Shown: positions 3 through 20,079 of the stretch, one piece after another
How positions within the stretch are numbered: position 1 is the first letter of the stretch
Layout of the letters: each line of letters opens with the position of its first letter
Source: a bacterium
GTDB lineage: Bacteria; Zhuqueibacterota; Zhuqueibacteria; Residuimicrobiales; Krinioviventaceae
Assembly: GCA_963674595.2 (NCBI GenBank)
Contig: CAXXFV010000015.1
Location: 316,692 to 380,691, forward strand
Reading direction: 5' to 3'
Length of the DNA: 64,000 nt
Translations under genes and position numbers: made by a program
The notes under the pieces: model-generated
Told to the model about the DNA's origin: nothing
Database searches by the model: none
What the model saw: the letters and a program-made list of their open reading frames with translations, nothing else

Positions 3-602
3 ACCACATCAGATGCCTCGTTGCCGGTAGAGCTTTCTCTCTTTACCGCCGAACAGCAGGGCGCGTCTGTGCGGCTTGAATGGACCACAGAAAGTGAACG
101 AGATAATGCCGGGTTTGAAATTCAACGTTCGTGGAATGATAATAACTGGAAAACCATCGCTTCCTACAAAACCCATTCGGCATTGGTCGGGCAGGGCACC
201 ACATCATCGCGAACCGAATACACTTTTACTGATATATCTGCCGACGCTGACGTTTTGTATTATCGTTTACGGGATGTTCATATCAACGGATCAGCGGGAA
301 AGTGGACGGAAACAAAGATTGTTCGAAATAATTTGCCGCAGCAGTTTGTGTTACATGATGCTTATCCCAATCCTTTTAATCCACAGACAAATATTGATTT
401 TGAACTGCCGGAAAAATGTAATGTGTGTATAAAAATATTTAACGTTAAAGGTCAATGTGTGGAAGACTTGGCGGAACAGTCCTTTGACGCGGGCGTTCAC
501 TCTGTTGTGTGGACGGCTGTGGACCAACCCAGCGGATTGTATTTCATCCATTTACAGGCCGGAGGATTCAAGGCTGTACGCAGTGTTGTGCTTTTGAAAT
601 AA
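3..602 (+). CDS. 3' part of a secreted protein with DASLPVEL linker, Ig-like domain and T9SS type-A-like (YPNPFNP) C-terminal sorting domain; open at the window start
   Basis: Frame is open from base 3 (TTSDASLPVELS...). Contains WTTESERDNAGF and YPNPFNPQT...PSGLYF motifs. Close paralog of the 3' half of 9951..11027. Confidence 0.85.
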   Translation, partial: TTSDASLPVELSLFTAEQQGASVRLEWTTESERDNAGFEIQRSWNDNNWKTIASYKTHSALVGQGTTSSRTEYTFTDISADADVLYYRLRDVHINGSAGKWTETKIVRNNLPQQFVLHDAYPNPFNPQTNIDFELPEKCNVCIKIFNVKGQCVEDLAEQSFDAGVHSVVWTAVDQPSGLYFIHLQAGGFKAVRSVVLLK

Positions 603-781: not shown

Positions 782-3652
782 TTGTCAATGTTTAATCGCC
801 TGAGGAATAAATTGACCCGATTTCATCGATTATTGTACTATAGCCTGATTCTTTTTATGGTGGTTTTTTCAAGATCAACTTTTTGTTACAGCACGTTGAT
901 GAGCGAACCCGGTAAAAATTCGAAAACATCAGATGAAATATACAATATCGAGACCGGTTGGCAGTATCGCACAGGTGATTCTCCACAGGATTCAAATGGT
1001 CGGTTAACCTGGCTGGATGATAGTCTTGATTCCAGTGCATGGACATCTGTGGACAAGTTCAGCGATATACCTGTTTCAGGATATAAAAGTCTATGGGTAC
1101 GAACCCGTCTTCCGGATATTAAAGTTTTTAACTCGGCGCTCTATTTTCCAAGTGTACGGCAAATAGTTCAAATTTACTTGAATGGACAGCAAATTTATCA
1201 ATTTGGCGATTTCACAACCAAAGATAAAGACCACTTTGTGGGCTGGCGTATTATGCTTGTGCGTTTGCCCGAAGATTATGCTGATGGTATTCTCTGTTTC
1301 CGAATCTGGTCCAGCGGATCTACTATTGGTCTCAATCAGCCTCTCCGGCTTGTTTCGGCAAATGTTGTCTTAACTGACTTGTTCTTAAGAGATGCTGATG
1401 AAATTATTGTTGCGCCGCTTTTTATTATTCTTGGTTTTGTGCTGCTGATTGTTTTTTTGTTTTTTCAGAGAAACAGGCTGTTGATAGGAATTGCTCTTTT
1501 TCTAATACCAATTGGTGTATTTACAGGCAGCAATTCTTACTTTCTTCTAGCCTTGATTGACAAGCCGTATCTTTTTTTTCTGCTGGATTTTTTCTCATTA
1601 ATGATTTGTCCCATTGGAGGCCTGTATCTTACAGAGCAGATTATTGTCAAAAATTTCAGGCCTGTTGTCAGGCGGCTTTGGCAGGCACACCTGATTTTGT
1701 TACTAATTTCAATAATATCCACAATTGTTTTTAAGAACCGCTTTACGGACTTGTTTTATCAGCTTTTTTTCATATTGAGTTCAGTGAGCACCATTATAAG
1801 TTTTATTTTGGTCATTAAGAGTTTACACAAAGGCAGGCGGGAGATAAAATTACTTTTTATCGGATTGATTATTTTTTACTTTTTTGGGGGCAGCGAAATT
1901 TTCCTGCACTATGTAATACATGTGTCATCACATGTTAATTTGCTTCATTTCGGTACCTTTGGTTTTGTTGTCTGTCTGGCCTGGATCGTCATCGACAGAT
2001 ACATTGACACCATTCGCCAGCAAGAGATTGCACAGGAAAAAGTTATCGAGTCGGAAAAAATTAAAGAAATCGACAGGATGAAATCCCGGTTTTTTGCCAA
2101 TATTTCCCATGAATTTCGCACGCCCCTGACATTGATTATGGGCACAGCCAAACAGATTTTGGAGACCTCGAAGGATAAAAGCATACGCACAAAATCTCAG
2201 CTACAGATAAAGAACGGAAGGCGACTGCTGAACCTGGTCAATGAACTACTGGAACTGTCCCGGATCGAAGCAGGACGTATGGATTTAAAAATCGAATTGA
2301 CGGATATATTGCCGCTGATAAAAGGGGTTTGCCACGCTTTTGAATCGTATGTATTGCATAATAAAATCGATATGGTTTTTGCATCAGATCTGGATACTGC
2401 CCTCATTTGGATTGATCGCGATAAAATAGAAAAAGTAGTGACCAATCTGGTTTCGAATGCCGTCAAGTTTACACATTCAGGCGGGCAGATCAAAATATCT
2501 GTTTCTCAATACGAGTGCCTGGAAATAAGGATAGCCGATACGGGTCCGGGAATTGCAGGTCAGCACCTTCCCCATGTTTTCGACCGTTTTTACCAGGTGG
2601 ACAATGAATATAGACAAGATCAGCAGGGGAGCGGCATTGGCCTTGCGTTGGCCCGTGAACTGGTACATTTGCATCATGGTGAGATTACCGCGCAAAGTGA
2701 AATCGGCAGTGGCAGCACATTCATCGTGCAGTTGCCGATAGGGCGTGAACACTTTTCAGAAGAAGAGTTGGCGGCTTTACCTTTAGTGCCTGCTTTAGAA
2801 CCTGATCCAGGGGCTTCAAGTTCAGCAGAATCTCTGACAATTGAGGAGATTAGCGAGGATGTTCCGAATGTGCGTGTCCGGCGTTCAAAGAAAAAGGGTG
2901 CACCCATCATCCTCATTACAGAGGACAATACCGACCTTCGTGCTTATATCCGTGATATAATAGAGGGGGAATACGAAATTCTGGAGGCCGGGGACGGGAA
3001 GGAAGGCTTTCAACAGGCAATTGAAAGCATACCGGATCTGGTGATCAGTGATGTGATGATGCCCAAAATGGACGGTTACCAGTTTTGTGAAAAACTAAAA
3101 ACAGATGAACGAACCAGTCACATCCCTGTGGTTTTGCTTACCGCCAGGTCGGACAGCGCCAGCAAAATAGAAGGCCTTACGCAGGGCGCCGACGACTATC
3201 TCACCAAACCCTTTGAACCGGATGAGCTGCAAGTGCGGGTTAAAAATCTTATTGAGCAGCGCCGCAAACTGCGCGAACGGTTCAGCAGACAGATTACCAC
3301 ATCTTTTGCGGATATTGCAGTTATGCCCGCAGATGAAAAATTTTTAAAACGTGCTGTGGATATTATCGAAATCCATCTTGATAATCCCGATTTAAGTGTA
3401 GACTGGCTCAGCAACAAGCTGGCTCTTTCACGCTCTCAATTGCATAGAAAAATTCATGCTCTCACCAATCAAACCGTTGTTGATTTCATCCGTACCATCC
3501 GTTTAAAACATGCTGTACAAATGCTGGAAGCCCGGACCGCCACCATATCTGAAATTGCCTACCAAACAGGTTTCGGCAGCCCGGATTATTTCAGACGTTG
3601 TTTTAAAAAGCAGTTTGGCATGTCTCCTTCTCAATACATTTCTCTCAAATAA
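782..3652 (+). CDS. Hybrid two-component sensor/regulator: periplasmic sugar-binding-like domain, 7TM (DISM-like), HisKA, HATPase, REC, AraC HTH
   Basis: H-box FANISHEFRTPLT; NLVSNAVKFT; DTGPGI; GSGIGLAL; REC DLVISDVMMPKMDG and DYLTKPF; AraC tail ISEIAYQTGFGSPDYFRRCFKKQFG; about 7 hydrophobic segments. Confidence 0.93.
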   Translation: MSMFNRLRNKLTRFHRLLYYSLILFMVVFSRSTFCYSTLMSEPGKNSKTSDEIYNIETGWQYRTGDSPQDSNGRLTWLDDSLDSSAWTSVDKFSDIPVSGYKSLWVRTRLPDIKVFNSALYFPSVRQIVQIYLNGQQIYQFGDFTTKDKDHFVGWRIMLVRLPEDYADGILCFRIWSSGSTIGLNQPLRLVSANVVLTDLFLRDADEIIVAPLFIILGFVLLIVFLFFQRNRLLIGIALFLIPIGVFTGSNSYFLLALIDKPYLFFLLDFFSLMICPIGGLYLTEQIIVKNFRPVVRRLWQAHLILLLISIISTIVFKNRFTDLFYQLFFILSSVSTIISFILVIKSLHKGRREIKLLFIGLIIFYFFGGSEIFLHYVIHVSSHVNLLHFGTFGFVVCLAWIVIDRYIDTIRQQEIAQEKVIESEKIKEIDRMKSRFFANISHEFRTPLTLIMGTAKQILETSKDKSIRTKSQLQIKNGRRLLNLVNELLELSRIEAGRMDLKIELTDILPLIKGVCHAFESYVLHNKIDMVFASDLDTALIWIDRDKIEKVVTNLVSNAVKFTHSGGQIKISVSQYECLEIRIADTGPGIAGQHLPHVFDRFYQVDNEYRQDQQGSGIGLALARELVHLHHGEITAQSEIGSGSTFIVQLPIGREHFSEEELAALPLVPALEPDPGASSSAESLTIEEISEDVPNVRVRRSKKKGAPIILITEDNTDLRAYIRDIIEGEYEILEAGDGKEGFQQAIESIPDLVISDVMMPKMDGYQFCEKLKTDERTSHIPVVLLTARSDSASKIEGLTQGADDYLTKPFEPDELQVRVKNLIEQRRKLRERFSRQITTSFADIAVMPADEKFLKRAVDIIEIHLDNPDLSVDWLSNKLALSRSQLHRKIHALTNQTVVDFIRTIRLKHAVQMLEARTATISEIAYQTGFGSPDYFRRCFKKQFGMSPSQYISLK

Positions 3653-3785: not shown

Positions 3786-4742
3786 ATGAAATATGTAACC
3801 ATCCTTTTATTATTCCTGTCCATTTCAGTCCATTCTCAAGAAATGGTTGTTTCCAACGTTCGTATGGTACAACGAACCGACGGCAATTTTATGGTTGATA
3901 TAGTGTACGATTTAAGTTATACAGGGGAGAATATGATTGCTATCGCTGTTGAAGCATCGGCTGATAACGGGGCAACATGGGATTTAGAGTGTAAAAGCCT
4001 GACGGGTGATGCAGGTGGAAATATCACACCGGGTACAGACAAGCATGTCGTATGGGATTTTTATGCAGACAATCCAAATGTTTCAGGAAATCAATACAAA
4101 GTCCGTGTAACTGCCAGTGATGAGTACATGATGGGCAATGACGGAAAACTGTATAAAACCGTTCAAATCGGCAATCAGCTTTGGATGGCGGAGAATTTAA
4201 AAGAGACAGTGTACAGGAATGGCGACCCGATACCTGAAGAAACCAATGGTCGTGACTGGCCGTTTTTTACCTCCGGCGCACGTTGTTCTTATGACAACTC
4301 GGAGTCATTAGCTGAGATTTATGGATATCTGTATAACTGGTATGCAGCCGTTGATACCCGGCATATAGCGCCCGAGGGTTGGCATGTGCCTTCAGATGTG
4401 GAGTGGAATATTTTACGCTCTTATCTTGGGCCTAATAGTATTCATATTGGGGCTGGGGGCAAGATGAAAGAAACAGGAACCGTGCATTGGGGTTCTCCAA
4501 ATGATGGGGCTACAAACGAGAGCGGATTTACCGCACTTCCTGCGGGATATCGATTTGGTGAAGATACGGATTATACGGGGTTTTTTTCACAACTCCAAAA
4601 TTCTACCTATTACTGGAATTCAACAAGCAGCACTAGTGAAAATGTAGAGATGTTGTGTCAATATCACGCTATGTTGGAACATGTGTATAACCAAAAGACT
4701 TATGGCCTCTCTATACGTCTGATCAAAGACAAAGATGAATAA
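3786..4742 (+). CDS. Secreted Fib_succ_major (FISUMP) domain protein, copy 1, with N-terminal Ig-like domain
   Basis: Signal peptide ending VHS-Q; YKTVQIGNQLWMAENL, YGYLYNWYAA, PEGWHVPSDVEW, GFTALPAGYR, GLSIRLIKD. ATG at 3786 follows GAGG. Confidence 0.88.
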   Translation: MKYVTILLLFLSISVHSQEMVVSNVRMVQRTDGNFMVDIVYDLSYTGENMIAIAVEASADNGATWDLECKSLTGDAGGNITPGTDKHVVWDFYADNPNVSGNQYKVRVTASDEYMMGNDGKLYKTVQIGNQLWMAENLKETVYRNGDPIPEETNGRDWPFFTSGARCSYDNSESLAEIYGYLYNWYAAVDTRHIAPEGWHVPSDVEWNILRSYLGPNSIHIGAGGKMKETGTVHWGSPNDGATNESGFTALPAGYRFGEDTDYTGFFSQLQNSTYYWNSTSSTSENVEMLCQYHAMLEHVYNQKTYGLSIRLIKDKDE

Positions 4743-4779
4743 AGCGCTTGATAATATCATATGTAATTTAAGGAAACAC

Positions 4780-5748
4780 ATGAAATTTTTAATAACCGTA
4801 CCAACATTACTCTTGACCGCTGTCTGCCTGTTCGCCCAGGTTTCCAATGTTCGTGTGCAACAGCGCACCGACGGCAGTTTGATGGTAGATATTTATTACG
4901 ATTTCAGTAATCCCGTAGTTTTTGATATGGAAATTATGGGGATGCAAGCCTCTAATGACAACGGTGCAACCTGGGACCTGGACTGCGTTAGCCTGACCGG
5001 TGATATTGGCGCAGAGGTTACTTTTGGAACAGACAGGCATATTGTGTGGGACTTTTACGCGGATAATCCCGGTATGAGCGGTGACCAGTTCAAAGTTCGT
5101 CTTCTCTATTATTTATTTGACTTTATGATTGGCAACGACGGCACGGTATACAAAACCGTCAAGATCGGCGACCAGTGGTGGATGGCCGAGAATTTAAGAG
5201 AAACAAAATATAATAATGGTGTAGAAATACCGGTGATAACGGATGATTATGAATGGGAACATTGCTATAGCTTTAACAGAGCCGCGCGTTGTGTTTATAA
5301 TCATGACGAATCAAATGCAGATACCTATGGATACATTTATAATGGACACGCTGCAAACAACAGTAAAATTGCACCTGTTGGCTGGCACCTGGCGACTGAT
5401 GATGATTGGAAAGAGCTGGAAATGTTTATGGGGATGACTCAGGCTCAAGCTGATGAATTTGGAACTCGTGGTACTGACCAAGGCGCCAAATTAAAGTCAA
5501 TAACAAGCTGGGACTCAGGTAATGGCAATAATATAACCAGGTTTTCTGCCATACCAGGCGGCTATAGGTGGACTCGTGGTAATTTTTCCTCCTTGGGTGA
5601 GATGACTGTTTTTATATCCAGTTACATCACAGAGTATGTAAATAATAGTTTATGTTTTACTCGAAGGATTAAAGAAGGTGCGGATGGTATAGAAAGAATG
5701 TCTGAATTTTCAGTAATGGGTGGTTATATCCGCCTGGTTAAAGACTAA
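4780..5748 (+). CDS. Secreted FISUMP domain protein, copy 2
   Basis: AGGA RBS then ATG at 4780; LFA-QVSNVRVQQRTDG; YKTVKIGDQWWMAENL; ends GYIRLVKD. Confidence 0.88.
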   Translation: MKFLITVPTLLLTAVCLFAQVSNVRVQQRTDGSLMVDIYYDFSNPVVFDMEIMGMQASNDNGATWDLDCVSLTGDIGAEVTFGTDRHIVWDFYADNPGMSGDQFKVRLLYYLFDFMIGNDGTVYKTVKIGDQWWMAENLRETKYNNGVEIPVITDDYEWEHCYSFNRAARCVYNHDESNADTYGYIYNGHAANNSKIAPVGWHLATDDDWKELEMFMGMTQAQADEFGTRGTDQGAKLKSITSWDSGNGNNITRFSAIPGGYRWTRGNFSSLGEMTVFISSYITEYVNNSLCFTRRIKEGADGIERMSEFSVMGGYIRLVKD

Positions 5749-5783
5749 TGACGTGCTAGTTTTATATTGATATGAGGAAACAC

Positions 5784-6749
5784 ATGAAATTTTTAATAAC
5801 CGTAGGAACATTGCTTTTAACCATTGGCCCCCTGTTCGCACAGGTCTCCAACGTGCGTGTGCAGCAGCGCACAGATGGCTCTTTGATGGTGGATATTTGT
5901 TATGATTTTATCAATCCCAATGGCTATGACACCGAAATAGCAGTCATGGCCTCTAACGACAACGGCGTGACCTGGGAGTTAGCGTGTTCAAGCTCAAACC
6001 AGACCGGCGATGTGGGCGAAGACATTAGCGCTGGTACAGACAAGCACATTGTGTGGGACTTTTACGCGGACAATCCCAATACCAGCGGCAGCCAGTTCAA
6101 GGTCCGGGTCCTGTACTATTTCTATGATACCATGACCGGCAACGACGGCACGGTATACAAAACCGTCAAGATTGGCAACCAATGGTGGATGGCGGAAAAT
6201 TTAAGAGAAACTAAATACCGTGATGGGTCAGAAATAGTATTAGCAACTCATGATTGGATGTATAACGAAGACGCCGCAAGAGGCATAAGATGTATTTATA
6301 ACAACAATGAAAGTAATGCTGCAACGTATGGCTATTTGTACAATTGGTATGCCGCTGCCCAAAGTGGTATAGCCCCCGAAGGCTGGCATGTGCCAACGGA
6401 TGAGGAGTGGAACGTACTGGAAGCCTATTTAGAAATAGGGGCCCCGGATACTCAGGTTGGTGATTATAGTGGTTATAATGGTCAAGGCGCCAAATTCACG
6501 AGTGCTGAGTACTGGGATCGTAAACTGGATAATAATAGCCCCTACTTTAACATCAGCCGTTTTTCAGCAGTGCCCGGCGGTATGCGTTGGGATACAGGTG
6601 AGTTCAATGGAATAGATTATGATGCCAATTTTTGGACTGCAACAAGCCCTTCTAGAGACCGAGCGTGGTGCCGATCAGCAGCCACTTCGTATTACCACAA
6701 CGCCGTTAGCAAGTATCAAGGTTTTTCTATCCGCTTGGTCAAAGATTAA
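5784..6749 (+). CDS. Secreted FISUMP domain protein, copy 3
   Basis: GAGGA RBS; same N-domain; YGYLYNWYAA, PEGWHVPTDEEW, GFSIRLVKD. Confidence 0.88.
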   Translation: MKFLITVGTLLLTIGPLFAQVSNVRVQQRTDGSLMVDICYDFINPNGYDTEIAVMASNDNGVTWELACSSSNQTGDVGEDISAGTDKHIVWDFYADNPNTSGSQFKVRVLYYFYDTMTGNDGTVYKTVKIGNQWWMAENLRETKYRDGSEIVLATHDWMYNEDAARGIRCIYNNNESNAATYGYLYNWYAAAQSGIAPEGWHVPTDEEWNVLEAYLEIGAPDTQVGDYSGYNGQGAKFTSAEYWDRKLDNNSPYFNISRFSAVPGGMRWDTGEFNGIDYDANFWTATSPSRDRAWCRSAATSYYHNAVSKYQGFSIRLVKD

Positions 6750-6785
6750 TAACGTGCTTAATACTAATATAATATGAGGAAAAAC

Positions 6786-7777
6786 ATGAGATTTTCAACA
6801 ACCATATTATTATTGATTTTAATGATGGGATGCCTGTACGCCCAGGTCTCCAACGTGCGGGTGCAGCAGCGCACGGACGGTACTTTTATGGTTGATATCT
6901 GGTACGATTTTAACAACCCTCAAGGGTATGATAACGAAATCACGGTCAAAGCATCTGACGATAACGGCGCAAGCTGGAACCTGTACTGCATTAGCCTCAC
7001 CGGCGACCTGGGTGAGAACATTACCGCCGGCACAGACAAGCACATAGTGTGGGATTTTTATGCCGACAATCCCAATATGAGCGGCAGCCAGTTCAAAGTG
7101 TGTGTGCTTTATTCTTTTTATAGCACCATGACCGGCAATGACGGCACGGTCTACAAAACCGTCAAGATTGACGACCAGTGGTGGATGGCTGAAAATTTAA
7201 GAGAGACTCAATATCGTGATGGAACCAGCATAAAAGAAATAGCAGATAGTTTTTATTGGCCTCTCGGTTATTCAGGCCGGTGTGCATATGAAAACGTTGA
7301 AAGTAATGCTGATACGTATGGCTATTTATATAATTGGTATGCTTGTGACGATGACCACCAAATTGCCCCCCGGGCTGGCATATGCCAACAGATAGTGATT
7401 GGAAAGAACTGGAACGCTCCCTGGGCATGAGTGAAAGTAACGTGAATGCTACCTATAGGCCTGATAGCCGTGAAGGCAGTAAACTCGCCGGTCGTGCTGA
7501 TTTGTGGTGGGGAGGTGGTCTTTTGGAGACTGATGCCAACTTTGATGTTAGTGGTTTTTGCGCGGTGCCAGGCGGTTACCGCAACTACGATTATGAGGGT
7601 GATTTCACCCAAAAAAATTACAAGGCCCGTTTTTGGACCGCTTCGGAGGAAGATGAAATTCACATATATGACCCTTCTTACGCGTGGTATCGCGGGTTGG
7701 ACCATACGAATGCATATCTCCACCGTTCATATACCTATAAGGAGCATGGTTTTTCTATTCGCCTGGTCAAAGATTAA
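6786..7777 (+). pseudogene. FISUMP domain protein, copy 4, split by a 1-bp frameshift in a C6 run (7366-7371)
   Basis: ORFs 6774..7430 and 7382..7777 carry the N- and C-halves. Adding one C restores IAPPGWHMPTDSDW and a 993-nt gene. May be a sequencing error. Confidence 0.8.
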
Positions 7778-7830
7778 CCAATGATCATAAACAAAAATGT
7801 TATTAATTAACAACTAAAATAGAGGTTAAC

Positions 7831-9930
7831 ATGAAAAAAACATTTGTTCTTTTGGTATTATGTGTTTTGGCATGCGCCGGTACCATACTGGCGCAATCGG
7901 GAATGGCCGAATCAGGGGCGGTGTCTCTGACTTCCAGGCCTCCCGCTTCTGCGCCTGAATTGGTCGGTCCCAGATATCCCAATTATGAGCTGCTCTCTTG
8001 CCGGGCCCGGTTGATTTGGGAAAACATGGACCATGCCCTGACTTATAATGTTCAGATCGCGAATGATTTTGAATTTACTGACATTGTGGGAACATACACC
8101 AGCATAGAAGACACAATCTATGTTGCTGATCTGCCCGCAAACAGTACATGGTATCATTGGCGGGTCAGCGCCACCAACCGCGCCGGCACAGGCAGCTATG
8201 GTTATATACTACAATTTGAAACATCAGATATGACCAGCATCAACGTGGGCAGTTACGCCGCCCCAACCATGACCGATATTGACGCCGACGGCCTGCTGGA
8301 TATGCTGGTGGGCAATCATGACGGCACACTGACCCGTTATGAACAAACGGCCGTCAACTCGTTTTCATTAAATCTCATTGCTTCAAATTTTAGCGGTATT
8401 GATGTCGGTGTCGGCAGTTCCCCCACGGTTCTTGATCTCGATGGCGACGGCCTGCTGGACCTGATCATAGGCCGCGGTGACGGCACCCTGCAACACTATG
8501 AACAAGACAGCGAGCGTTCCACATCCTTTACCCTAGTCGGCGCCTTGAGCGGCATCGATGCGGGTTCCTGGTCCAAACCCACGTTTACTGATCTGGATTG
8601 GAATGACCACCTTGATCTGCTAATTGGCAACCAGGGCGGTACCATTTATCATTACGAACAGGACGCCCAGTATTCATCGTCCTTTACCCTGGTTAGCGAC
8701 AATTTCAATTCCATTGATGTTGGAAGGGAAGCCTCCCCTATGTTTTGTTTTTACAATACCGGAAGTACTATGGAGCTTTTTATAGGCAATGCACTCGGCA
8801 AGGTCCAGCTTTATCACCAGGGCTCCATTGCTTCACGTGTGTTTTCAATTGAAACCACGGATTGGAATGACATTGATGTTGGCGAAAGATCGGTACTGGC
8901 CCAAACCGACCTGGACGGTAATAACCGTGTTGACCTGTTGGTCGGAGGTGATGACGGGATCGTTGGTATTAGAAAAGGAGATACTTATCGTATCGATGTT
9001 TCCATGTCAACAGACCCTGCAGAAAACATAACCGCCACAACTGCTGAATTGGGCGGTGACTTTTCTAACTTTAATGCCGTACCGGTACAGCGACGCGGCG
9101 TTATTTACAGTACCACCAATCCGCCCGTTATGACGGACAACATGGTCTCCATGGGCAGTGTTGCGGGTATTTTTTCCGAAATAGTAAGCGGACTGACTCC
9201 CAATACCACCTATTACTATCGTACTTTTGGCACCAATTGTTACGGCACCTTTTATGGTTCGGTAAAGACCTTTGTTACCAATGATTGTCCCCATATTTGT
9301 GTCAAAGTTTTTTTACAAGGGCCCTATGATGCTGTTACGCACGCCATGCAAACGAATCTTTCAGGCAACATCCCGGCAATATCTCCTTACGCGGACAACC
9401 GCAATGCTGGCAGTATCCCGGAGGGTATTACTGACTGGGTTTACCTGGAATTACGTAACACAGCCGACGGCGAAGCGGTATACGGCCGCTCCTATCTTTT
9501 ACGCAACGACGGCTACCTTGCTGAAGATGACGGCACAGAGACGGATCTGAGCCTTGAAGACGCAGCCGAGGGTGACTATTACATCATCATCCGGCACCGC
9601 AACCATCTGGCCGTTGAAAGTGCGTCGGCACAGAGTTTGACTTCAACATTAACAACTTATGATTTCACTGTGAATGAGACAGTGGACTGTGATAAATATT
9701 ACGGCGGAGAGGCTGCTCTTTTGGAAAACGGTGACCCAAAAATTTATGGCATGTTTTGCGGAGATGCTAACGAAAACGGCAGTATCAATGCCACCGATTA
9801 TCTCAGTGTAAAGGGGCAAAACGGTGCTTCCGGGTATCATGCTCGTGACTGTAATATGAATGGAGATGTTAACGCCACCGACTATTTGTTTATCAAACCC
9901 AATAGCGGCAAGAGTACTCAAATCCCATAA
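7831..9930 (+). CDS. Secreted modular protein: FN3-like domain, five FG-GAP/VCBS-like repeats, FN3-like domain, conserved KVFLQGPY...HRNHL module and dockerin-like duplicated Ca-binding loops
   Basis: Repeats such as DVGVGSSPTVLDLDGDGLLDLIIG; GLTPNTTYYYR; GDANENGSINATDY and DCNMNGDVNATDY; signal peptide ending ILA-Q; no YPNPFNP CTD. Confidence 0.8.
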   Translation: MKKTFVLLVLCVLACAGTILAQSGMAESGAVSLTSRPPASAPELVGPRYPNYELLSCRARLIWENMDHALTYNVQIANDFEFTDIVGTYTSIEDTIYVADLPANSTWYHWRVSATNRAGTGSYGYILQFETSDMTSINVGSYAAPTMTDIDADGLLDMLVGNHDGTLTRYEQTAVNSFSLNLIASNFSGIDVGVGSSPTVLDLDGDGLLDLIIGRGDGTLQHYEQDSERSTSFTLVGALSGIDAGSWSKPTFTDLDWNDHLDLLIGNQGGTIYHYEQDAQYSSSFTLVSDNFNSIDVGREASPMFCFYNTGSTMELFIGNALGKVQLYHQGSIASRVFSIETTDWNDIDVGERSVLAQTDLDGNNRVDLLVGGDDGIVGIRKGDTYRIDVSMSTDPAENITATTAELGGDFSNFNAVPVQRRGVIYSTTNPPVMTDNMVSMGSVAGIFSEIVSGLTPNTTYYYRTFGTNCYGTFYGSVKTFVTNDCPHICVKVFLQGPYDAVTHAMQTNLSGNIPAISPYADNRNAGSIPEGITDWVYLELRNTADGEAVYGRSYLLRNDGYLAEDDGTETDLSLEDAAEGDYYIIIRHRNHLAVESASAQSLTSTLTTYDFTVNETVDCDKYYGGEAALLENGDPKIYGMFCGDANENGSINATDYLSVKGQNGASGYHARDCNMNGDVNATDYLFIKPNSGKSTQIP

Positions 9931-9950
9931 CTGGAAGAAAGGATAACAAC

Positions 9951-11027
9951 ATGAAGCGCTTTATACAGATTATACTATCACTTTTAATACTTGCCGGAAT
10001 TTCATGGGCCGGAGATGTTACTGTTTCTCTTTCAGGTACCAATCCGCTGTCAGTTAATATCAAGGGAACCAGCTCCAACCAGGAAGCCGGAAGCATCAGT
10101 ATCTACCTCTATTTTTGTGATGATGGTGTTGCTGATCTTTCAATCGATAATGTCAATGATGATCTGCTGGAATTAACCTGGGGATGGGGAAACACATTAC
10201 GTACCCAATCGATACAAACCGGATCATGGAGCAGAGGTGGACATACCTTTACCCGCCGGCTTTATTATGATAATGTTGATGTTGGTGATCAAAATGATTA
10301 CTGGACCACCGCAGGTATAAATGCCCTGGTCTGCACATTCACCACCCTGGGAAGCGGTCATGCCTACATTGAGGTTAACGGTGATGGACTGGCTGACTGG
10401 TCCGGTACGGCCCATAATGTGAGTTATGGTTCCCAGGACACGTCCCTGCCTGTGGAACTCGTCTCTTTCTCAGGCAGGCAGCAAGGAAGCTCCATTATAC
10501 TCGACTGGACCACGGAAAGCGAAACCGACAACCTGGGATTTGTTTTGGAACGCAAAAGCGACAATTTGGAGTGGACGACCATTGCTTCTTACAAAACCCA
10601 TTCTGCACTAGCCGGACAGGGTACCATATCGTCACGAACAGAATATACTTTTACTGACATGTTTACGGGCGCAAAAGTTTTATACTATCGTTTAAAAGAC
10701 GTTGATGTCAACGGCACTGCAGGTAAATGGACGGAAACAACAATTGTTCAAAATACTTTGCCGAATCAGTTTGTGTTATATGATGCTTATCCCAATCCTT
10801 TTAATCCACAAACGCGGATCGATTTTGAATTACCGGAAAGATGTGATGTATTTATCAAGATTTATAACCTACAGGGACAGTGTGTGGAAACCATCGCAGA
10901 ACAGTCATTTGACGCAGGTATCCACTCTGTAGTGTGGACGGCTTTGGACCAGCCCAGCGGATTGTATTTTATCCATTTACAGGCTGGTGCTTTCAAGGCT
11001 GTGCGCAATGTTGTGCTTTTGAAATAA
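9951..11027 (+). CDS. Secreted protein with an uncharacterised ~145-aa beta-rich N-domain (possibly cohesin-like), Ig-like domain and T9SS type-A-like CTD
   Basis: Signal peptide; DTSLPVELVSF linker; YPNPFNPQT CTD; starts 20 bp after the dockerin-like gene. Confidence 0.8.
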   Translation: MKRFIQIILSLLILAGISWAGDVTVSLSGTNPLSVNIKGTSSNQEAGSISIYLYFCDDGVADLSIDNVNDDLLELTWGWGNTLRTQSIQTGSWSRGGHTFTRRLYYDNVDVGDQNDYWTTAGINALVCTFTTLGSGHAYIEVNGDGLADWSGTAHNVSYGSQDTSLPVELVSFSGRQQGSSIILDWTTESETDNLGFVLERKSDNLEWTTIASYKTHSALAGQGTISSRTEYTFTDMFTGAKVLYYRLKDVDVNGTAGKWTETTIVQNTLPNQFVLYDAYPNPFNPQTRIDFELPERCDVFIKIYNLQGQCVETIAEQSFDAGIHSVVWTALDQPSGLYFIHLQAGAFKAVRNVVLLK

Positions 11028-11054
11028 GGGGAATTATAAGCCGATTAAGTAAAA

Positions 11055-11091
11055 TATGCACCATGGCAAAAGCTGTGGTGCATGTTGTTTT
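11055..11091 (+). terminator. Rho-independent terminator closing the FISUMP operon
   Basis: ATGCACCATGGC-AAAA-GCTGTGGTGCAT stem (with G-U pairs) followed by a T-rich tail. Confidence 0.7.
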
Positions 11092-11842: not shown

Positions 11843-14035
11843 ATGAAAAAATCGACCTATTTAGCTGTGATGTTACTAACCCTGGCCACAAGTGTCTTTG
11901 CGCAGTTGTCCGGAACGTACACGGTTGGTGCAGGGCAGGATTATGAAACCCTGACTGCAGCAGTAAGCGATCTGAATACGAACGGCGTTTCAGGTGCTGT
12001 TGTTTTTGAATTGACGGACGCCGGTTATGCCTCAGAAACATTCCCCATCACGATTAACGAAATAACAGGCGCAAGTTCTACAAACACCGTTACCATCCGT
12101 CCGGCAAGCGGTGTAACAACAGAAATAAGCGGTGACAGCGGCGGAGACAATACCAGCATTATAAAACTGTATGGTGCGGACTATATCATAATTGACGGCA
12201 GCAACAACGGTTCAACCAGCCGTGATCTTACCATTGAAAACACCAAAGTCGGTGCATGGAGCTCGACGATTTGGCTGGCAAGCTTAGGGGATGATCAGGG
12301 ATGCCACGATAATGTAATTAAAAACTGTATCCTTAGTTATGGAGCGCCAAGTTATACAGCCGCTGTTATCAATTTTTCCGGTTCGTCACATATGTGGACT
12401 GATTACGGTTATGATAATAATAATAATGTTATTGAAAACTACGAAATAAAAAAATGTCATACTGGTATTCGTTTATGTGCTATAAGTGCTGAAAAAAACA
12501 GCGCCAATATCATACGTAATAATCTGATCGGTTCCGGCAATTCCGGGGACTATATTGATGATGAAGGAATTTATTGTCTTCATCAGACCGATCTGGAAAT
12601 AACCGGGAATGAAATTTTTAATATAATTGATAATGGCCACGTAACGGGTATTTACATTGCCATCTGTTCATCAGTAACAGTCGCTAAAAATAAAATTCAC
12701 GACATTTACAGCACATATGAAGATTATCAAGTTCGTGGTATTTATTTTAACTCAAACGAAACAGATCCTGATTTAACAATCAGTAACAATATGATATGGC
12801 ATATAGCAAGTCAGGGTAATTGGGACGATGATGAAAACTATATGCCTGCAGGCATTTCTTTATATTCTTCAGCTATCACAACCGGGATCCGTCTCTATTT
12901 TAATTCAATCTACTTAACTGAAGATGTTGATAATGGTCTGAATGTATTTGATAACTTTTCATCAGCGCTGTTTATAGATGGGCCAACCGGAATTGATTGC
13001 AGAAATAATATTTTCCGCAACAGCCTGGGCGAGAAAACCGGATGTACCTTTTCGACGACCTGTTACGGGATTTATGTTAATCGATCCTCAAATCCATTTT
13101 CTGTTTGCGATAATAATATTTACTATGTAAACAGTACCAGCGATAATAATTATATCGCTAACGGGAATAGCACAAATTATTCCACCCTTTCAGCCTGGCA
13201 GGGATTTACCGGCGATGATGATAATTCGCTCAATTCAGAGCCTGACTTTACATCGGCGACAAATCTTGATCTGACGGAAAGTAACGATGCCGGAATAGCC
13301 ATCAGCGGATATTCTACGGATATCAATGGTGATCAACGGGCAGATCCTCCGGATATCGGAGCGGATGAAGAGGCATCGGTCGTCCGGTTGCAGGCAAAAG
13401 TCTTTCTTGAAGGAGCCTATTATGCCGACGGTGATACCATGTCCACAGCAGTGAACGATTCGATCCCGCTGACCTCGCCGTACACCGAAGACGCACGAAC
13501 CATTGACTCGGTTCCTGAGGACATTACCGACTGGATGCTGGTTCAGCTTCGTTTAATGGCGGAAGATACGAACGCCGTGGCTTCCAAAAGTGTTTTCCTG
13601 CGCAATGATGGCCGGATTGTAGGAGATGACGGCACTACCGAATACACTGAAATTGAAGCGGATTCCGGAAATTATTTCATTGTTGTTAAACACAGGAATC
13701 ATCTCGCTGTGATGAGTGACGAGGTACATACGCTCGGCGCAAGCAGTTCCTCTTTGTACGATTTTACGGTGAGTGATTCTGATACCTGTGACAGGTATTT
13801 TGGGAATGACGCCAAAGTGCTTGAGACAGGTGTTTATGGCATGTATACCGGAGATATTAATCAGGATGGTGAAATTACGACATCAGACTATACTCGATGG
13901 TATAATCAAGCCCGTATCGGTGCAAGTGGTTATAATACCTGTGATATAAATTTGGATAAAGACGTTACGACAACGGATTATACAAAGTGGTATAATAATG
14001 CCTGCATTGGCGCTTCGTCCCATGTGCCAAAATGA
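11843..14035 (+). CDS. Secreted right-handed beta-helix (pectin-lyase-like/NosD-like) protein with the same C-terminal KVFLEGAY...HRNHL + dockerin-like module
   Basis: LSGTYTVGAG..DY start; Asn-rich I.NN.I repeats; DINGDQRADPPDIGADE; GDINQDGEITTSDY and DINLDKDVTTTDY. Confidence 0.8.
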   Translation: MKKSTYLAVMLLTLATSVFAQLSGTYTVGAGQDYETLTAAVSDLNTNGVSGAVVFELTDAGYASETFPITINEITGASSTNTVTIRPASGVTTEISGDSGGDNTSIIKLYGADYIIIDGSNNGSTSRDLTIENTKVGAWSSTIWLASLGDDQGCHDNVIKNCILSYGAPSYTAAVINFSGSSHMWTDYGYDNNNNVIENYEIKKCHTGIRLCAISAEKNSANIIRNNLIGSGNSGDYIDDEGIYCLHQTDLEITGNEIFNIIDNGHVTGIYIAICSSVTVAKNKIHDIYSTYEDYQVRGIYFNSNETDPDLTISNNMIWHIASQGNWDDDENYMPAGISLYSSAITTGIRLYFNSIYLTEDVDNGLNVFDNFSSALFIDGPTGIDCRNNIFRNSLGEKTGCTFSTTCYGIYVNRSSNPFSVCDNNIYYVNSTSDNNYIANGNSTNYSTLSAWQGFTGDDDNSLNSEPDFTSATNLDLTESNDAGIAISGYSTDINGDQRADPPDIGADEEASVVRLQAKVFLEGAYYADGDTMSTAVNDSIPLTSPYTEDARTIDSVPEDITDWMLVQLRLMAEDTNAVASKSVFLRNDGRIVGDDGTTEYTEIEADSGNYFIVVKHRNHLAVMSDEVHTLGASSSSLYDFTVSDSDTCDRYFGNDAKVLETGVYGMYTGDINQDGEITTSDYTRWYNQARIGASGYNTCDINLDKDVTTTDYTKWYNNACIGASSHVPK

Positions 14036-19128: not shown

Positions 19129-20079
19129 ATGTATAAAATATTTGGGTTCCTTATTTCCTTTTTAATAATTCCAGGTTGTCTTTTTTCTCAGGTGCAATCA
19201 GATTATAATCCTATGAACATCGGCAACTATTGGATTCAGCATACAAACACCCTTTTTGATGGATATAATCCAACAACCTTTAGAATGGAAATCGAAGGAA
19301 TTGACCTGATTAATGGAATAGAATATTTTAGGATGAAACAAGAACAGACAGTAGATGATGGTTCTAAAAAACCTTCTGTGTGGTATATTTGGACGGGTCA
19401 AAATTCTAAAGGTGGATTGTTGGGAGCTTTTGGCACCAGTTCCGATATAGATTCAGCATTTATTTATGATCCACCGGTTGTCTCGTTTCCAAAGGACGCA
19501 AATAGTATAGGCTATTCATGGAAATATTTTATGCCTGGTACGGGAAACGGTGGTCAAAATTTTTCCAATGAAATTATAAGTTACACGGAAACAGTCAAGG
19601 TGCCGAGTGGAGCATACAAAAATTGTATGAAAATCAGTACTATTATTACAGATACATCGGGAACAACAACCCAAACATATAACCATTATTATGCTCAGGG
19701 AGTTGGACAAATATTAAATGAAGGGTGGAGTTCCTGGGGAGGTGATTATAAATTTGAACTGACAGAGTATAATGTTCAAACCTCTGTAATTGTCGGAAAA
19801 TCATTAAATAATCCAGATAATTTTAAACTATGCCGGAACTATCCCAATCCGTTTAATCCAAAAACTGTTATTCAATACCAAATACCAAACTCGACAAATG
19901 TTTCGTTAAAAGTATATAATGTTCTTGGTAAAGAAATAGCTACTTTGGTTGACCAATACCAGTCCTTCGGAAATCACTCGATAAAATTTGATGCGACTAA
20001 TCTGCCATCGGGTATTTATTTCTATAAACTTAGGACCGCCGGCTACTTGGAAACGAAAAAGATGCTGCTTTGTAGATAA
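19129..20079 (+). CDS. Secreted hypothetical protein with T9SS type-A-like CTD
   Basis: Signal peptide LFS-Q; ETVKVPSGAYKNC and YYAQGVG motifs; NYPNPFNPKT...LPSGIYFY; AGGAG RBS. Confidence 0.8.
   Translation: MYKIFGFLISFLIIPGCLFSQVQSDYNPMNIGNYWIQHTNTLFDGYNPTTFRMEIEGIDLINGIEYFRMKQEQTVDDGSKKPSVWYIWTGQNSKGGLLGAFGTSSDIDSAFIYDPPVVSFPKDANSIGYSWKYFMPGTGNGGQNFSNEIISYTETVKVPSGAYKNCMKISTIITDTSGTTTQTYNHYYAQGVGQILNEGWSSWGGDYKFELTEYNVQTSVIVGKSLNNPDNFKLCRNYPNPFNPKTVIQYQIPNSTNVSLKVYNVLGKEIATLVDQYQSFGNHSIKFDATNLPSGIYFYKLRTAGYLETKKMLLCR

Follow-up and report, generated by a model that had tools for sequence, protein, structure and literature searches.

A putatively regulated operon for a candidate three-tier, non-covalent surface lectin array in a bacterium of the Zhuqueibacterota

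Introduction

How might secreted proteins that lack a surface sorting signal be held at the surface of a diderm bacterium? This question is raised by six co-oriented genes in a 64,000-nucleotide stretch of DNA (the window; contig CAXXFV010000015.1 of assembly GCA_963674595.2, positions 316,692 to 380,691, forward strand) from a member of the Krinioviventaceae, phylum Zhuqueibacterota. Type IX secretion system (T9SS) cargo is currently recognised by its C-terminal domain (CTD). Among the six products only the last, a 358-aa protein named 9951 after the first position of its gene, ends in such a domain. The other five, namely four FISUMP proteins (F1 to F4) and the 699-aa protein 7831, gave no match to a T9SS CTD in a Pfam scan. 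If these five proteins are held at the surface by partners, many surface proteins of the Fibrobacteres-Chlorobi-Bacteroidetes (FCB) group would be invisible to the current rule.

In this study, we focused on the domains of these proteins and on the company that their genes keep in other genomes. The best-supported reading is a chain that runs from a FISUMP lectin tip through the dockerin-tailed scaffold 7831 to the CTD anchor 9951; we hold it tentatively, a little short of calling it probable. Its two links differ in strength and are graded separately below.

Results and Discussion

We identified a T9SS sorting domain at the end of 9951, as the preliminary description of the locus had claimed. 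Por_Secre_tail (PF18962) scores 33.0 bits against a cut-off of 27 and TIGR04183 scores 36.6 against 23, and the motif YPNPFNP is present. In the AlphaFold2 (AF2) model of 9951, which was built from 23 sequences with a predicted local distance difference test score (pLDDT) of 83.4, residues 272-358 match solved T9SS CTDs (8qb1_A, Z 10.5; 6za2_B, Z 10.4) and residues 167-268 are FN3-like in structural comparison. The T9SS part searched for in the genome was the sortase PorU, which was found at 879.7 bits (cut-off 420). With a CTD above cut-off and PorU in the genome, 9951 is a predicted type A T9SS cargo.

The remaining N-terminal part of 9951, of which residues 21-168 have no Pfam match, resembles cohesins in its modelled structure. 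The comparison was a full VIA-align search of 48,161 PDB chains, independent of Foldseek, for which the stated background is Z 7-8. For residues 21-170, ranks 1 to 10 were all cohesins (Z 11.1-12.0, root-mean-square deviation (rmsd) 2.6-3.6, 121-133 residues aligned). The best match was 1ohz_A (Z 12.0, rmsd 2.6, 126 of 140 aa), followed by 6kgc_A (11.7) and 3kcp_A (11.7), with 5lxv_C (11.1) in tenth place. By these matches, the model has the nine-stranded jelly-roll beta-sandwich fold of cohesins. When the whole model was submitted to Foldseek, FN3 repeats dominated the result and a cohesin-FN3 double module, 2w1n, stood at rank 7. An exhaustive profile search of 1.84 billion representatives returned 24 relatives of the domain at E <= 0.001, 17 of them at E <= 1e-10. 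A word-indexed search returned 28 proteins, all at least 50% identical and sharing the architecture of 9951.

Two side observations concern the anchor. The gene before the regulator of the operon (window 3-602; G000:C15:315275-317293, where G000 is this genome) encodes a 672-aa protein that combines a CTD with legume-lectin and Ig-like domains. Identity to 9951 is 67% in its FN3-like domain and 83% in its CTD, far higher than for any other CTD of the genome (45% at most); these identities point to a recent copying of the stalk-plus-anchor module between the two genes. The genome also encodes seven cohesins that Pfam recognises. One lies in a 714-aa open reading frame (ORF) (G000:C25:59129-59851; L002, L009) that also holds the best dockerin match of the genome (49.1 bits) and, from this domain content, looks like an adaptor. 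Two Pfam-cohesin proteins carry a T9SS CTD (2411 aa on contig C23 and 482 aa on contig C4).

The candidate partner of the cohesin-fold domain is the tail of 7831. Residues 644-689 of this protein score 27.7 bits for Dockerin_1 (PF00404; cut-off 22.9), a type I dockerin, and the two loops, DANENGSINATD and DCNMNGDVNATD, have D or N at positions 1, 3, 5, 9 and 12, from which calcium binding is predicted. The FG-GAP and FN3 modules and the dockerin-like end that had been described for this protein were all recovered. Its FN3 domain gives only a weak profile match; the FN3 domains of orthologous modules in small anchor proteins exceed the Pfam fn3 cut-off. The sequence N[AS]TDY is kept in both dockerin repeats of 13 out of 13 orthologous tails, and the other dockerin tails of this genome have EITTxDYTxWYN in its place.

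The same type of tail, a conserved beta domain followed by the dockerin, ends seven proteins of this genome. Their heads are an S8 subtilase, a GDSL lipase with FG-GAP/ASPIC, FG-GAP/ASPIC alone, an Ig-like protein, the head of the protein encoded at 11843-14035, and a 324-aa protein. Three of the seven tailed genes are followed directly by a gene for a 358-380-aa protein with a signal peptide, an N-terminal domain, an FN3 domain and a CTD. Besides the window, this arrangement was observed at two loci (G000:C29:213465-216847 and G000:C23:187749-193111; L025, L026), where the genes for an Ig-like protein and for an S8 subtilase and the 324-aa protein, respectively, precede a small CTD protein of about 380 aa. 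By BLAST, the N-terminal domains of these two small proteins are unlike that of 9951. In the ESM Atlas, Cohesin is the sole named family in their near clusters, with 13-14% of members at 0.87-0.88, which lies below 0.9 and is a lead only.

The pairing of the two genes was then followed across the phylum, in a set of 167 genomes (this one and 166 others). The 9951-type domain occurs in 11 of them (10 besides this one), and all 13 other loci from the 10 genomes (L050-L062) were examined. Together with the window, a dockerin-tailed gene lies directly upstream, on the same strand, of the cohesin-FN3-T9SS-CTD gene in 14 of 14 loci. The spacing of the two genes varies from an overlap to 462 nt, and the dockerin proteins have heads of 162 to 1315 aa. 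The sole cohesin gene without a dockerin gene immediately before it is the second member of a tandem pair. Ten other genomes hold a dockerin with 50% identity or more to the one in 7831, and nine of these also hold the cohesin type; the exceptions are one genome with the dockerin only (G096, 79% complete) and one with the cohesin only, at a contig end (G107). This genome has exactly one cohesin of the 9951 type and one dockerin of the 7831 subtype. A complex prediction of residues 21-170 of 9951 with the 7831 dockerin and two calcium ions, run without controls, scored 0.12 and 0.05 against a mark of 0.32 and weighs neither way. We conclude that the dockerin of 7831 probably binds the cohesin-fold domain of 9951.

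The tips of the chain would be the FISUMP proteins. F1, F2 and F3 are intact members of the family (PF09603/TIGR02145), with 140-149 bits against a cut-off of 33.9 and E-values from 1e-40 to 3e-43. Four tips had been proposed; the fourth is a frameshifted pseudogene. The two ORFs of F4 score 60.8 and 63.6 bits and cover positions 1-67 and 72-187 of the Fib_succ_major profile, the frame being changed by a 1-nt frameshift in a C6G3 run. An assembly error is unlikely, since contigs from four runs of four studies (X1, X3, X4 and X5) show no indel at this site relative to the assembly, though at low depth (2.4-4.5). F4 thus looks like a real pseudogene and not the error of one assembly. One run has an additional 1-nt deletion at 7568 (depth 2.4). 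Contig joints in runs X4 and X5 connect 6707 to 7746, which skips 1038 nt, and 7777 back to 5760. These might be array variants with other copy numbers or an ambiguity in the assembly of paralogs; the sides of the joints are only 32 letters long, which makes them weak evidence.

The four paralogs had been said to share an N-terminal Ig-like domain and to differ in their C-terminal domains. The first part holds, with 58-75% identity in the Ig-like domain. The C-terminal domains all belong to one family, Fib_succ_major, and it is their last half that has diverged: identity falls along the protein to 54-64% in the first half of the FISUMP domain and to 25-35% in the last. In the AF2 model of F3 (17 sequences, pLDDT 79.4), residues 117-325 match TvpA (2y3c_A, Z 9.3, rmsd 3.5, 152 aa) and PvdO (5hha_B, Z 9.2), followed by an FGE paralogue (Z 7.6), TaqVP (5vf4_A, Z 6.7) and Mtd (1yu0_A, Z 6.5). 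The Ig-like part reaches a Z of about 6 to Ig-like domains (e.g. 4iyk_A, Z 6.3). A PDB sequence search with F3 gave nothing useful, its single match standing at E 0.52.

FISUMP domains are reported among the targets of diversity-generating retroelements (DGRs) (PMC4159848, PMC5758913). The fold of the F3 domain is the C-type-lectin fold of the DGR variable proteins TvpA (2Y3C), Mtd (1YU0) and TaqVP (5VF4), and the paralogs likewise differ most in their C-terminal half. However, when the 3'-terminal 300 nt of F1-F4 were compared with the complete genome by blastn, no copy resembling a template repeat was seen; a search for reverse transcriptase was not made. Besides the genes themselves, the matches were one of 39 nt between the 3' ends of F3 and F4 (87%) and three short ones of about 72-84% identity on contigs C26 and C27. 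DGR diversification of the lectin ends was rejected on this ground, and the diversity of the FISUMP proteins would therefore come from tandem paralogs and not from retroelement mutagenesis. A further FISUMP protein of 357 aa is encoded on the same contig 3 kb upstream of the window (L034:8551-9624). It has an FN3 domain in place of the Ig-like one, and its gene adjoins those of a thioredoxin-like protein and an AraC regulator.

The N-terminal Ig-like domain shared by F1-F4, designated F_Ig, deserves attention of its own. It is about 90-95 aa long, has no Pfam or NCBIfam match in any scanned protein and occurs in 41 of the 167 genomes. Its mean column identity is 60%, with 18 invariant positions in 24 sequences, far above that of the cargo it is joined to, which may be one to three FISUMP domains, an FGE-sulfatase domain plus FISUMP, a beta-helix or nothing recognisable. 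It stands directly after the signal peptide in most proteins, and none of 21 F_Ig proteins scanned had a T9SS CTD.

We examined 24 F_Ig loci from 13 other genomes (L093-L116). In 23 of them, from 12 genomes, the F_Ig gene adjoins a gene with the N-terminal module of 7831, a mature N-terminal peptide plus FN3 designated S_N; at the lone exception, L115, a HAMP/PAS protein stands in its place. The S_N neighbour is in 21 cases a 235-360-aa protein ending in a T9SS CTD, encoded upstream of the F_Ig gene in 19, and in the other two (L093 and L094, related genus) a dockerin-tailed protein like 7831. FN3-like relatives of S_N were found in 112 of the 167 genomes; two unpublished genomes, used for no other result, are among those counted. 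Even so, of the 30 best S_N matches across the phylum, 23 have an F_Ig match no more than about 1.1 kb away. The S_N peptide motif occurs in two of the 10,365 ORFs of this genome. One is 7831; the other is a 340-aa FN3-FN3-CTD protein on contig 13, which adjoins the only other F_Ig gene of the genome.

Outside the phylum, 12 F_Ig loci were examined (one duplicate of L116 was dropped). In eight, the immediate neighbour of the F_Ig gene is a small gene whose product ends in a CTD or a CTD-like domain; by record titles these are three Bacteroidota (FN3 plus CTD), four Fibrobacteraceae and one Melioribacteraceae. The remaining four are a Calditrichaceae locus with a small CTD gene nearby and three loci with none or cut. 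The four Fibrobacteraceae loci (L144, L145, L148, L149) have F_Ig at the C terminus of a 694-892-aa protein, with an S8 subtilase in L145, still beside a small protein with an FlgD_ig/CTD-like end. Loci L103 and L108 (genomes G085 and G084) encode three or four giant proteins (963-1323 aa) behind a single small S_N-CTD gene, each with F_Ig, an FGE-sulfatase domain and two or three FISUMP domains. One could also read the small S_N-CTD gene and its F_Ig neighbour as two parts of one T9SS cargo that has been split; this was rejected, since each product has its own signal peptide.

These observations suggest that F_Ig of F1-F3 may bind S_N of 7831, and we regard this link as close to evenly balanced. 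A wider proposal is that F_Ig and S_N form a plug-and-socket pair across the FCB group (KSB1-like, Bacteroidota, Fibrobacteraceae and Ignavibacteriota-like members). The small S_N-CTD protein would present its peptide and FN3 domain, and F_Ig-tagged, CTD-less proteins of any function (lectin, FGE-like, beta-helix, S8 protease) would be T9SS passengers that stay on the surface; in the window this pair would be stacked on the cohesin-dockerin pair. This generalisation is possible and, in our judgement, rather doubtful. The pairing was not described in the literature found, although no search was aimed at this nameless pair.

The positions of these modules also bear on another explanation, in which the tail, F_Ig or both are export or sorting signals, e.g. 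an alternative T9SS signal, and the small CTD proteins are export helpers and not sockets. The tail is strictly C-terminal in seven of seven paralogs of this genome and replaces the CTD on the S8 protease, the GDSL lipase and FG-GAP proteins, F_Ig mostly follows the signal peptide directly, and cargos with a type B CTD are known to depend on a helper gene next to them. However, the dockerins of cellulosomal enzymes are C-terminal as well, the position of F_Ig is not fixed, as the Fibrobacteraceae show, and the cohesin fold of the partner suits docking better than help in export. We consider this explanation very unlikely.

The coordinates of the features are given in Table 1. As had been claimed, the six genes are tightly spaced and co-oriented between a hybrid two-component regulator and a terminator-like hairpin, and all six products have a signal-peptide-like N terminus by inspection. 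Successive genes are 37, 23, 24, 53 and 20 nt apart. The hairpin is the sole strong one of its kind between genes; because the gaps are short, no strong terminator lies inside and a single strong one stands at the end, we take the six genes to be one operon. No catalytic family was matched in the six products by Pfam and NCBIfam scans.

Table 1. Positions in the window of the operon, its regulator and the domains discussed
Feature	Positions	Strand	Description
Hybrid two-component sensor/regulator	782..3652	+	7TMR-DISM membrane sensor, HisKA, HATPase, receiver, AraC helix-turn-helix (Pfam)
F1	3786..4742	+	Signal peptide, Ig-like F_Ig, FISUMP (C-type-lectin-like), no CTD; Fib_succ_major E 2.9e-43; TIGR02145 124 bits
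F2	4780..5748	+	Architecture as F1; ORF open from 4735, signal peptide starts at 4780
F3	5772..6749	+	Architecture as F1; model with Ig-like sandwich (residues 26-118) and C-type-lectin/FGE fold (117-325)
F4	6774..7777	+	Fourth paralog, split over two frames (6774-7430 and 7382-7777)
C6G3 homopolymer run	7366..7374	+	Frameshift site of F4
Scaffold 7831, 699 aa	7831..9930	+	Signal peptide, S_N, FG-GAP propeller, Ig-like middle domain, C-terminal beta domain, dockerin
S_N	7897..8250	+	Mature N-terminal peptide (S..G.LTS.PP..P.L) plus FN3, from alignments; candidate F_Ig socket
FG-GAP beta-propeller region	8236..9015	+	Residues about 136-395; FG-GAP_3 50.5 bits, FG-GAP 45.1 bits
Beta domain before dockerin	9316..9735	+	P..SPY..R..P..DW..L.LR ... 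RHRNH, from alignments; without Pfam family
Two-repeat dockerin	9736..9927	+	Loops D-x-N-x-N-G-x-[IV]-N-A-T-D then YL; Dockerin_1
Anchor 9951, 358 aa	9951..11027	+	Signal peptide, cohesin-fold domain, FN3-like domain, type A T9SS CTD
Cryptic cohesin-fold domain	10011..10454	+	Residues 21-168; structural matches to AF2 model
T9SS type A C-terminal sorting domain	10788..11024	+	Por_Secre_tail and TIGR04183 above cut-offs; YPNPFNP
Terminator-like hairpin	11053..11086	+	15-bp stem, T-rich tail; closes operon
730-aa secreted protein (context)	11843..14035	+	Similar tail, different dockerin subtype (EITTSDYTRWYN); head without Pfam match

The regulator gene, which ends 133 nt upstream of the operon, unites sensor, HisKA, HATPase, receiver and AraC-type DNA-binding domain in one protein and so belongs to the hybrid two-component class. 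Its orthologues, with 71-72% identity, precede FISUMP genes at the equivalent position in L093 and L094, and the position is partly kept also in L053, L054, L096 and L097. By its place, the regulator would control the FISUMP operon, and its 7TMR-DISM sensor kinase hints at expression in response to a signal from outside, probably a carbohydrate.

Taken as a whole, the region may be a regulator-controlled operon for a non-covalent, three-tier surface lectin array. In the lowest tier, 9951 would be exported by the T9SS through its type A CTD and fixed to the surface, as is known for this family; there, an FN3 stalk would hold up its one cohesin-fold domain, which is strongly diverged. In the middle tier, the CTD-less 7831 would plug its two-repeat calcium-loop dockerin into this domain. 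In the upper tier, the three intact FISUMP proteins would dock through F_Ig on S_N. In most relatives, S_N sits directly on the small T9SS-CTD protein, so that the system would have two tiers; in this genome and two related ones it may have moved onto the dockerin-tailed FG-GAP protein, by which a tier would be added. It is tempting to speculate that the CTD-less parts bind their partner in the periplasm and leave through the T9SS as passengers, or that they exit otherwise and dock outside. The first route could operate because the T9SS passes folded proteins through the wide SprA pore (PMC9251779).

A number of observations weigh against this chain, and its links are drawn from fold models, gene order and co-occurrence. 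For the lower link, Pfam Cohesin (PF00963) was not matched in 9951, either in the genome scan (E <= 1) or by hmmscan of residues 21-175 (E <= 10). In hhalign, the profile of the domain family against six Pfam cohesins of this genome gave a probability of 0.2%, and the 24 relatives are all that 1.84 billion representatives yield, with no bridge to canonical cohesins. As used here for 9951, 'cohesin' is the name of a modelled fold and not of a family, and the call is made from that fold; a beta-sandwich of this form does not have to be a dockerin binder. Dockerin-like modules that lack a cohesin partner are reportedly common (Peer et al. 2009).

On the same observations it might be argued that there is no assembly at all. 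The operon would then encode six independent secreted proteins, the dockerin-like tail being a calcium-stabilised or ligand-binding end and the 9951 domain a generic beta-sandwich. Neighbouring genes can share a function without contact between their products, and the products of operon neighbours often do not bind one another. We consider this improbable, since the ten best structural matches are all cohesins and lie well over the usual background, the order of the two genes is kept in all 14 loci even though the dockerin proteins have different heads, 9 of 10 genomes are common to the two subtypes, and further dockerin subtypes of this genome are paired with small CTD proteins of their own.

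The upper link meets difficulties of its own. The loci counted are not independent, many of them being from genomes related to one another, and 10 of the 24 F_Ig loci belong to two congeneric genomes. A FISUMP gene is present in only 1 of the 13 other cohesin loci, and one of the four tips is a pseudogene. L093 and L094, which lie in the two closest relatives, have an equivalent operon of regulator, FISUMP and 7831-like genes, followed by CTD genes with GLUG repeats, PMP repeats or laminin-G and without a 9951-type cohesin; these genomes carry their cohesin genes elsewhere. The conservation of gene neighbourhoods to which the preliminary description had looked is found for each pair by itself and fails for the cohesin gene at the operon of these relatives. 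The chain of tip, scaffold and anchor that it had proposed gains from the cohesin fold of 9951, the 14 dockerin-cohesin loci and the 23 F_Ig-S_N loci, but all three tiers stand together in one operon only in this genome. Its wider picture of an adhesin with swappable tips is a hypothesis.

It is therefore also conceivable that the lower link alone is physical. In this case 7831 would be tethered to 9951, the FISUMP proteins would be lectin-like proteins, soluble or periplasmic, that are expressed along with 7831 without binding to it, and S_N and F_Ig genes would be neighbours through a common substrate or co-production. The dockerin-cohesin evidence draws on a known type of interaction and the F_Ig-S_N evidence on gene order; 12 of the 13 loci have no FISUMP gene, and FN3 and Ig-like domains commonly serve as stalks and are not known to bind each other. 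However, F_Ig shows unusual conservation for a spacer across such different cargos, is confined to CTD-less proteins and keeps a specific neighbour within the phylum and in other phyla, and the S_N peptide motif is restricted to neighbours of F_Ig. We regard it as unlikely that the lower link stands alone, though this explanation is less remote than the absence of any assembly. A last difficulty for the full chain lies in the exit of its parts. No route is known to us that would take CTD-less proteins over the outer membrane together with T9SS cargo, and piggyback or hitchhiker export by the T9SS was not found in our literature search.

The locus resembles several known systems in part. The clostridial type I cohesin-dockerin pairs (1OHZ, 4DH2, 3UL4), which include single-cohesin surface anchors, likewise join a C-terminal two-repeat calcium-loop dockerin on a secreted protein to a surface-fixed partner with a cohesin fold (Z 11.5-12.0 to 9951). 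As in dual-binding dockerins, the recognition segments in both repeats of the 7831 dockerin are near-identical. In contrast to the clostridial pairs, the domain of 9951 has no sequence similarity to Pfam Cohesin, anchoring is by a T9SS CTD, in a diderm, and not by an SLH domain or sortase signal, and a conserved beta domain stands ahead of the dockerin, in an order reminiscent of an X-module-dockerin dyad. Nor is the operon a cellulosome, which has a multi-cohesin scaffoldin and dockerin-borne enzymes: it has no cellulosome enzyme or carbohydrate-binding module (CBM), and one cohesin-fold domain per anchor. The same type of tail elsewhere in the genome does carry enzymes (S8 protease and GDSL lipase).

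The arrangement had been thought undescribed, a claim that was too wide. In a report on a metagenome-assembled genome (MAG) of 'Ca. Stygibacter' (Cloacimonadota), a T9SS-CTD scaffoldin with tandem cohesins was predicted together with dockerin-bearing enzymes (PMC8542988). This was the sole relevant paper found on dockerin or cohesin with the T9SS. Both systems belong to the FCB group, place cohesins on a CTD-bearing surface protein, use CTD-less dockerin proteins and were deduced from sequence alone. The scaffoldin given there has 3,755 aa, many Pfam-recognisable cohesins and CBMs and an enzymatic cargo, whereas the window encodes a single cryptic cohesin-fold domain, a 358-aa anchor, a fixed gene pair and a non-enzymatic cargo, with the candidate F_Ig/S_N tier in addition. 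For the passenger route, one of the two considered, the nearest parallel is hitchhiker export by the twin-arginine translocation (Tat) pathway, in which, according to one report (PMC4273604), signal-less subunits leave bound to a signal-bearing partner; a CTD-less protein would here likewise leave on a CTD-bearing one.

If the links are true, cohesin-dockerin assembly would extend from the enzymes of Gram-positive cellulose degraders to a regulated, lectin-like display in diderms, and the modules might serve as small orthogonal docking parts for surface display. The locus offers objects that can be tested: a cohesin family missed by profiles, a dockerin subtype matched to it one-to-one in the genome, and the 90-aa F_Ig with S_N as its candidate socket. 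F_Ig and S_N also occur in the Bacteroidota, a phylum with genetically tractable species; the Bacteroidota records found were all MAGs or single-amplified genomes.

Neighbouring genes

Downstream of the hairpin lies the gene at 11843-14035 for the 730-aa protein with a similar tail. No cohesin-type gene adjoins it. It is followed by genes for a DUF4386 membrane protein, a 1209-aa S8-like CTD protein and a 316-aa CTD protein (19129-20079).

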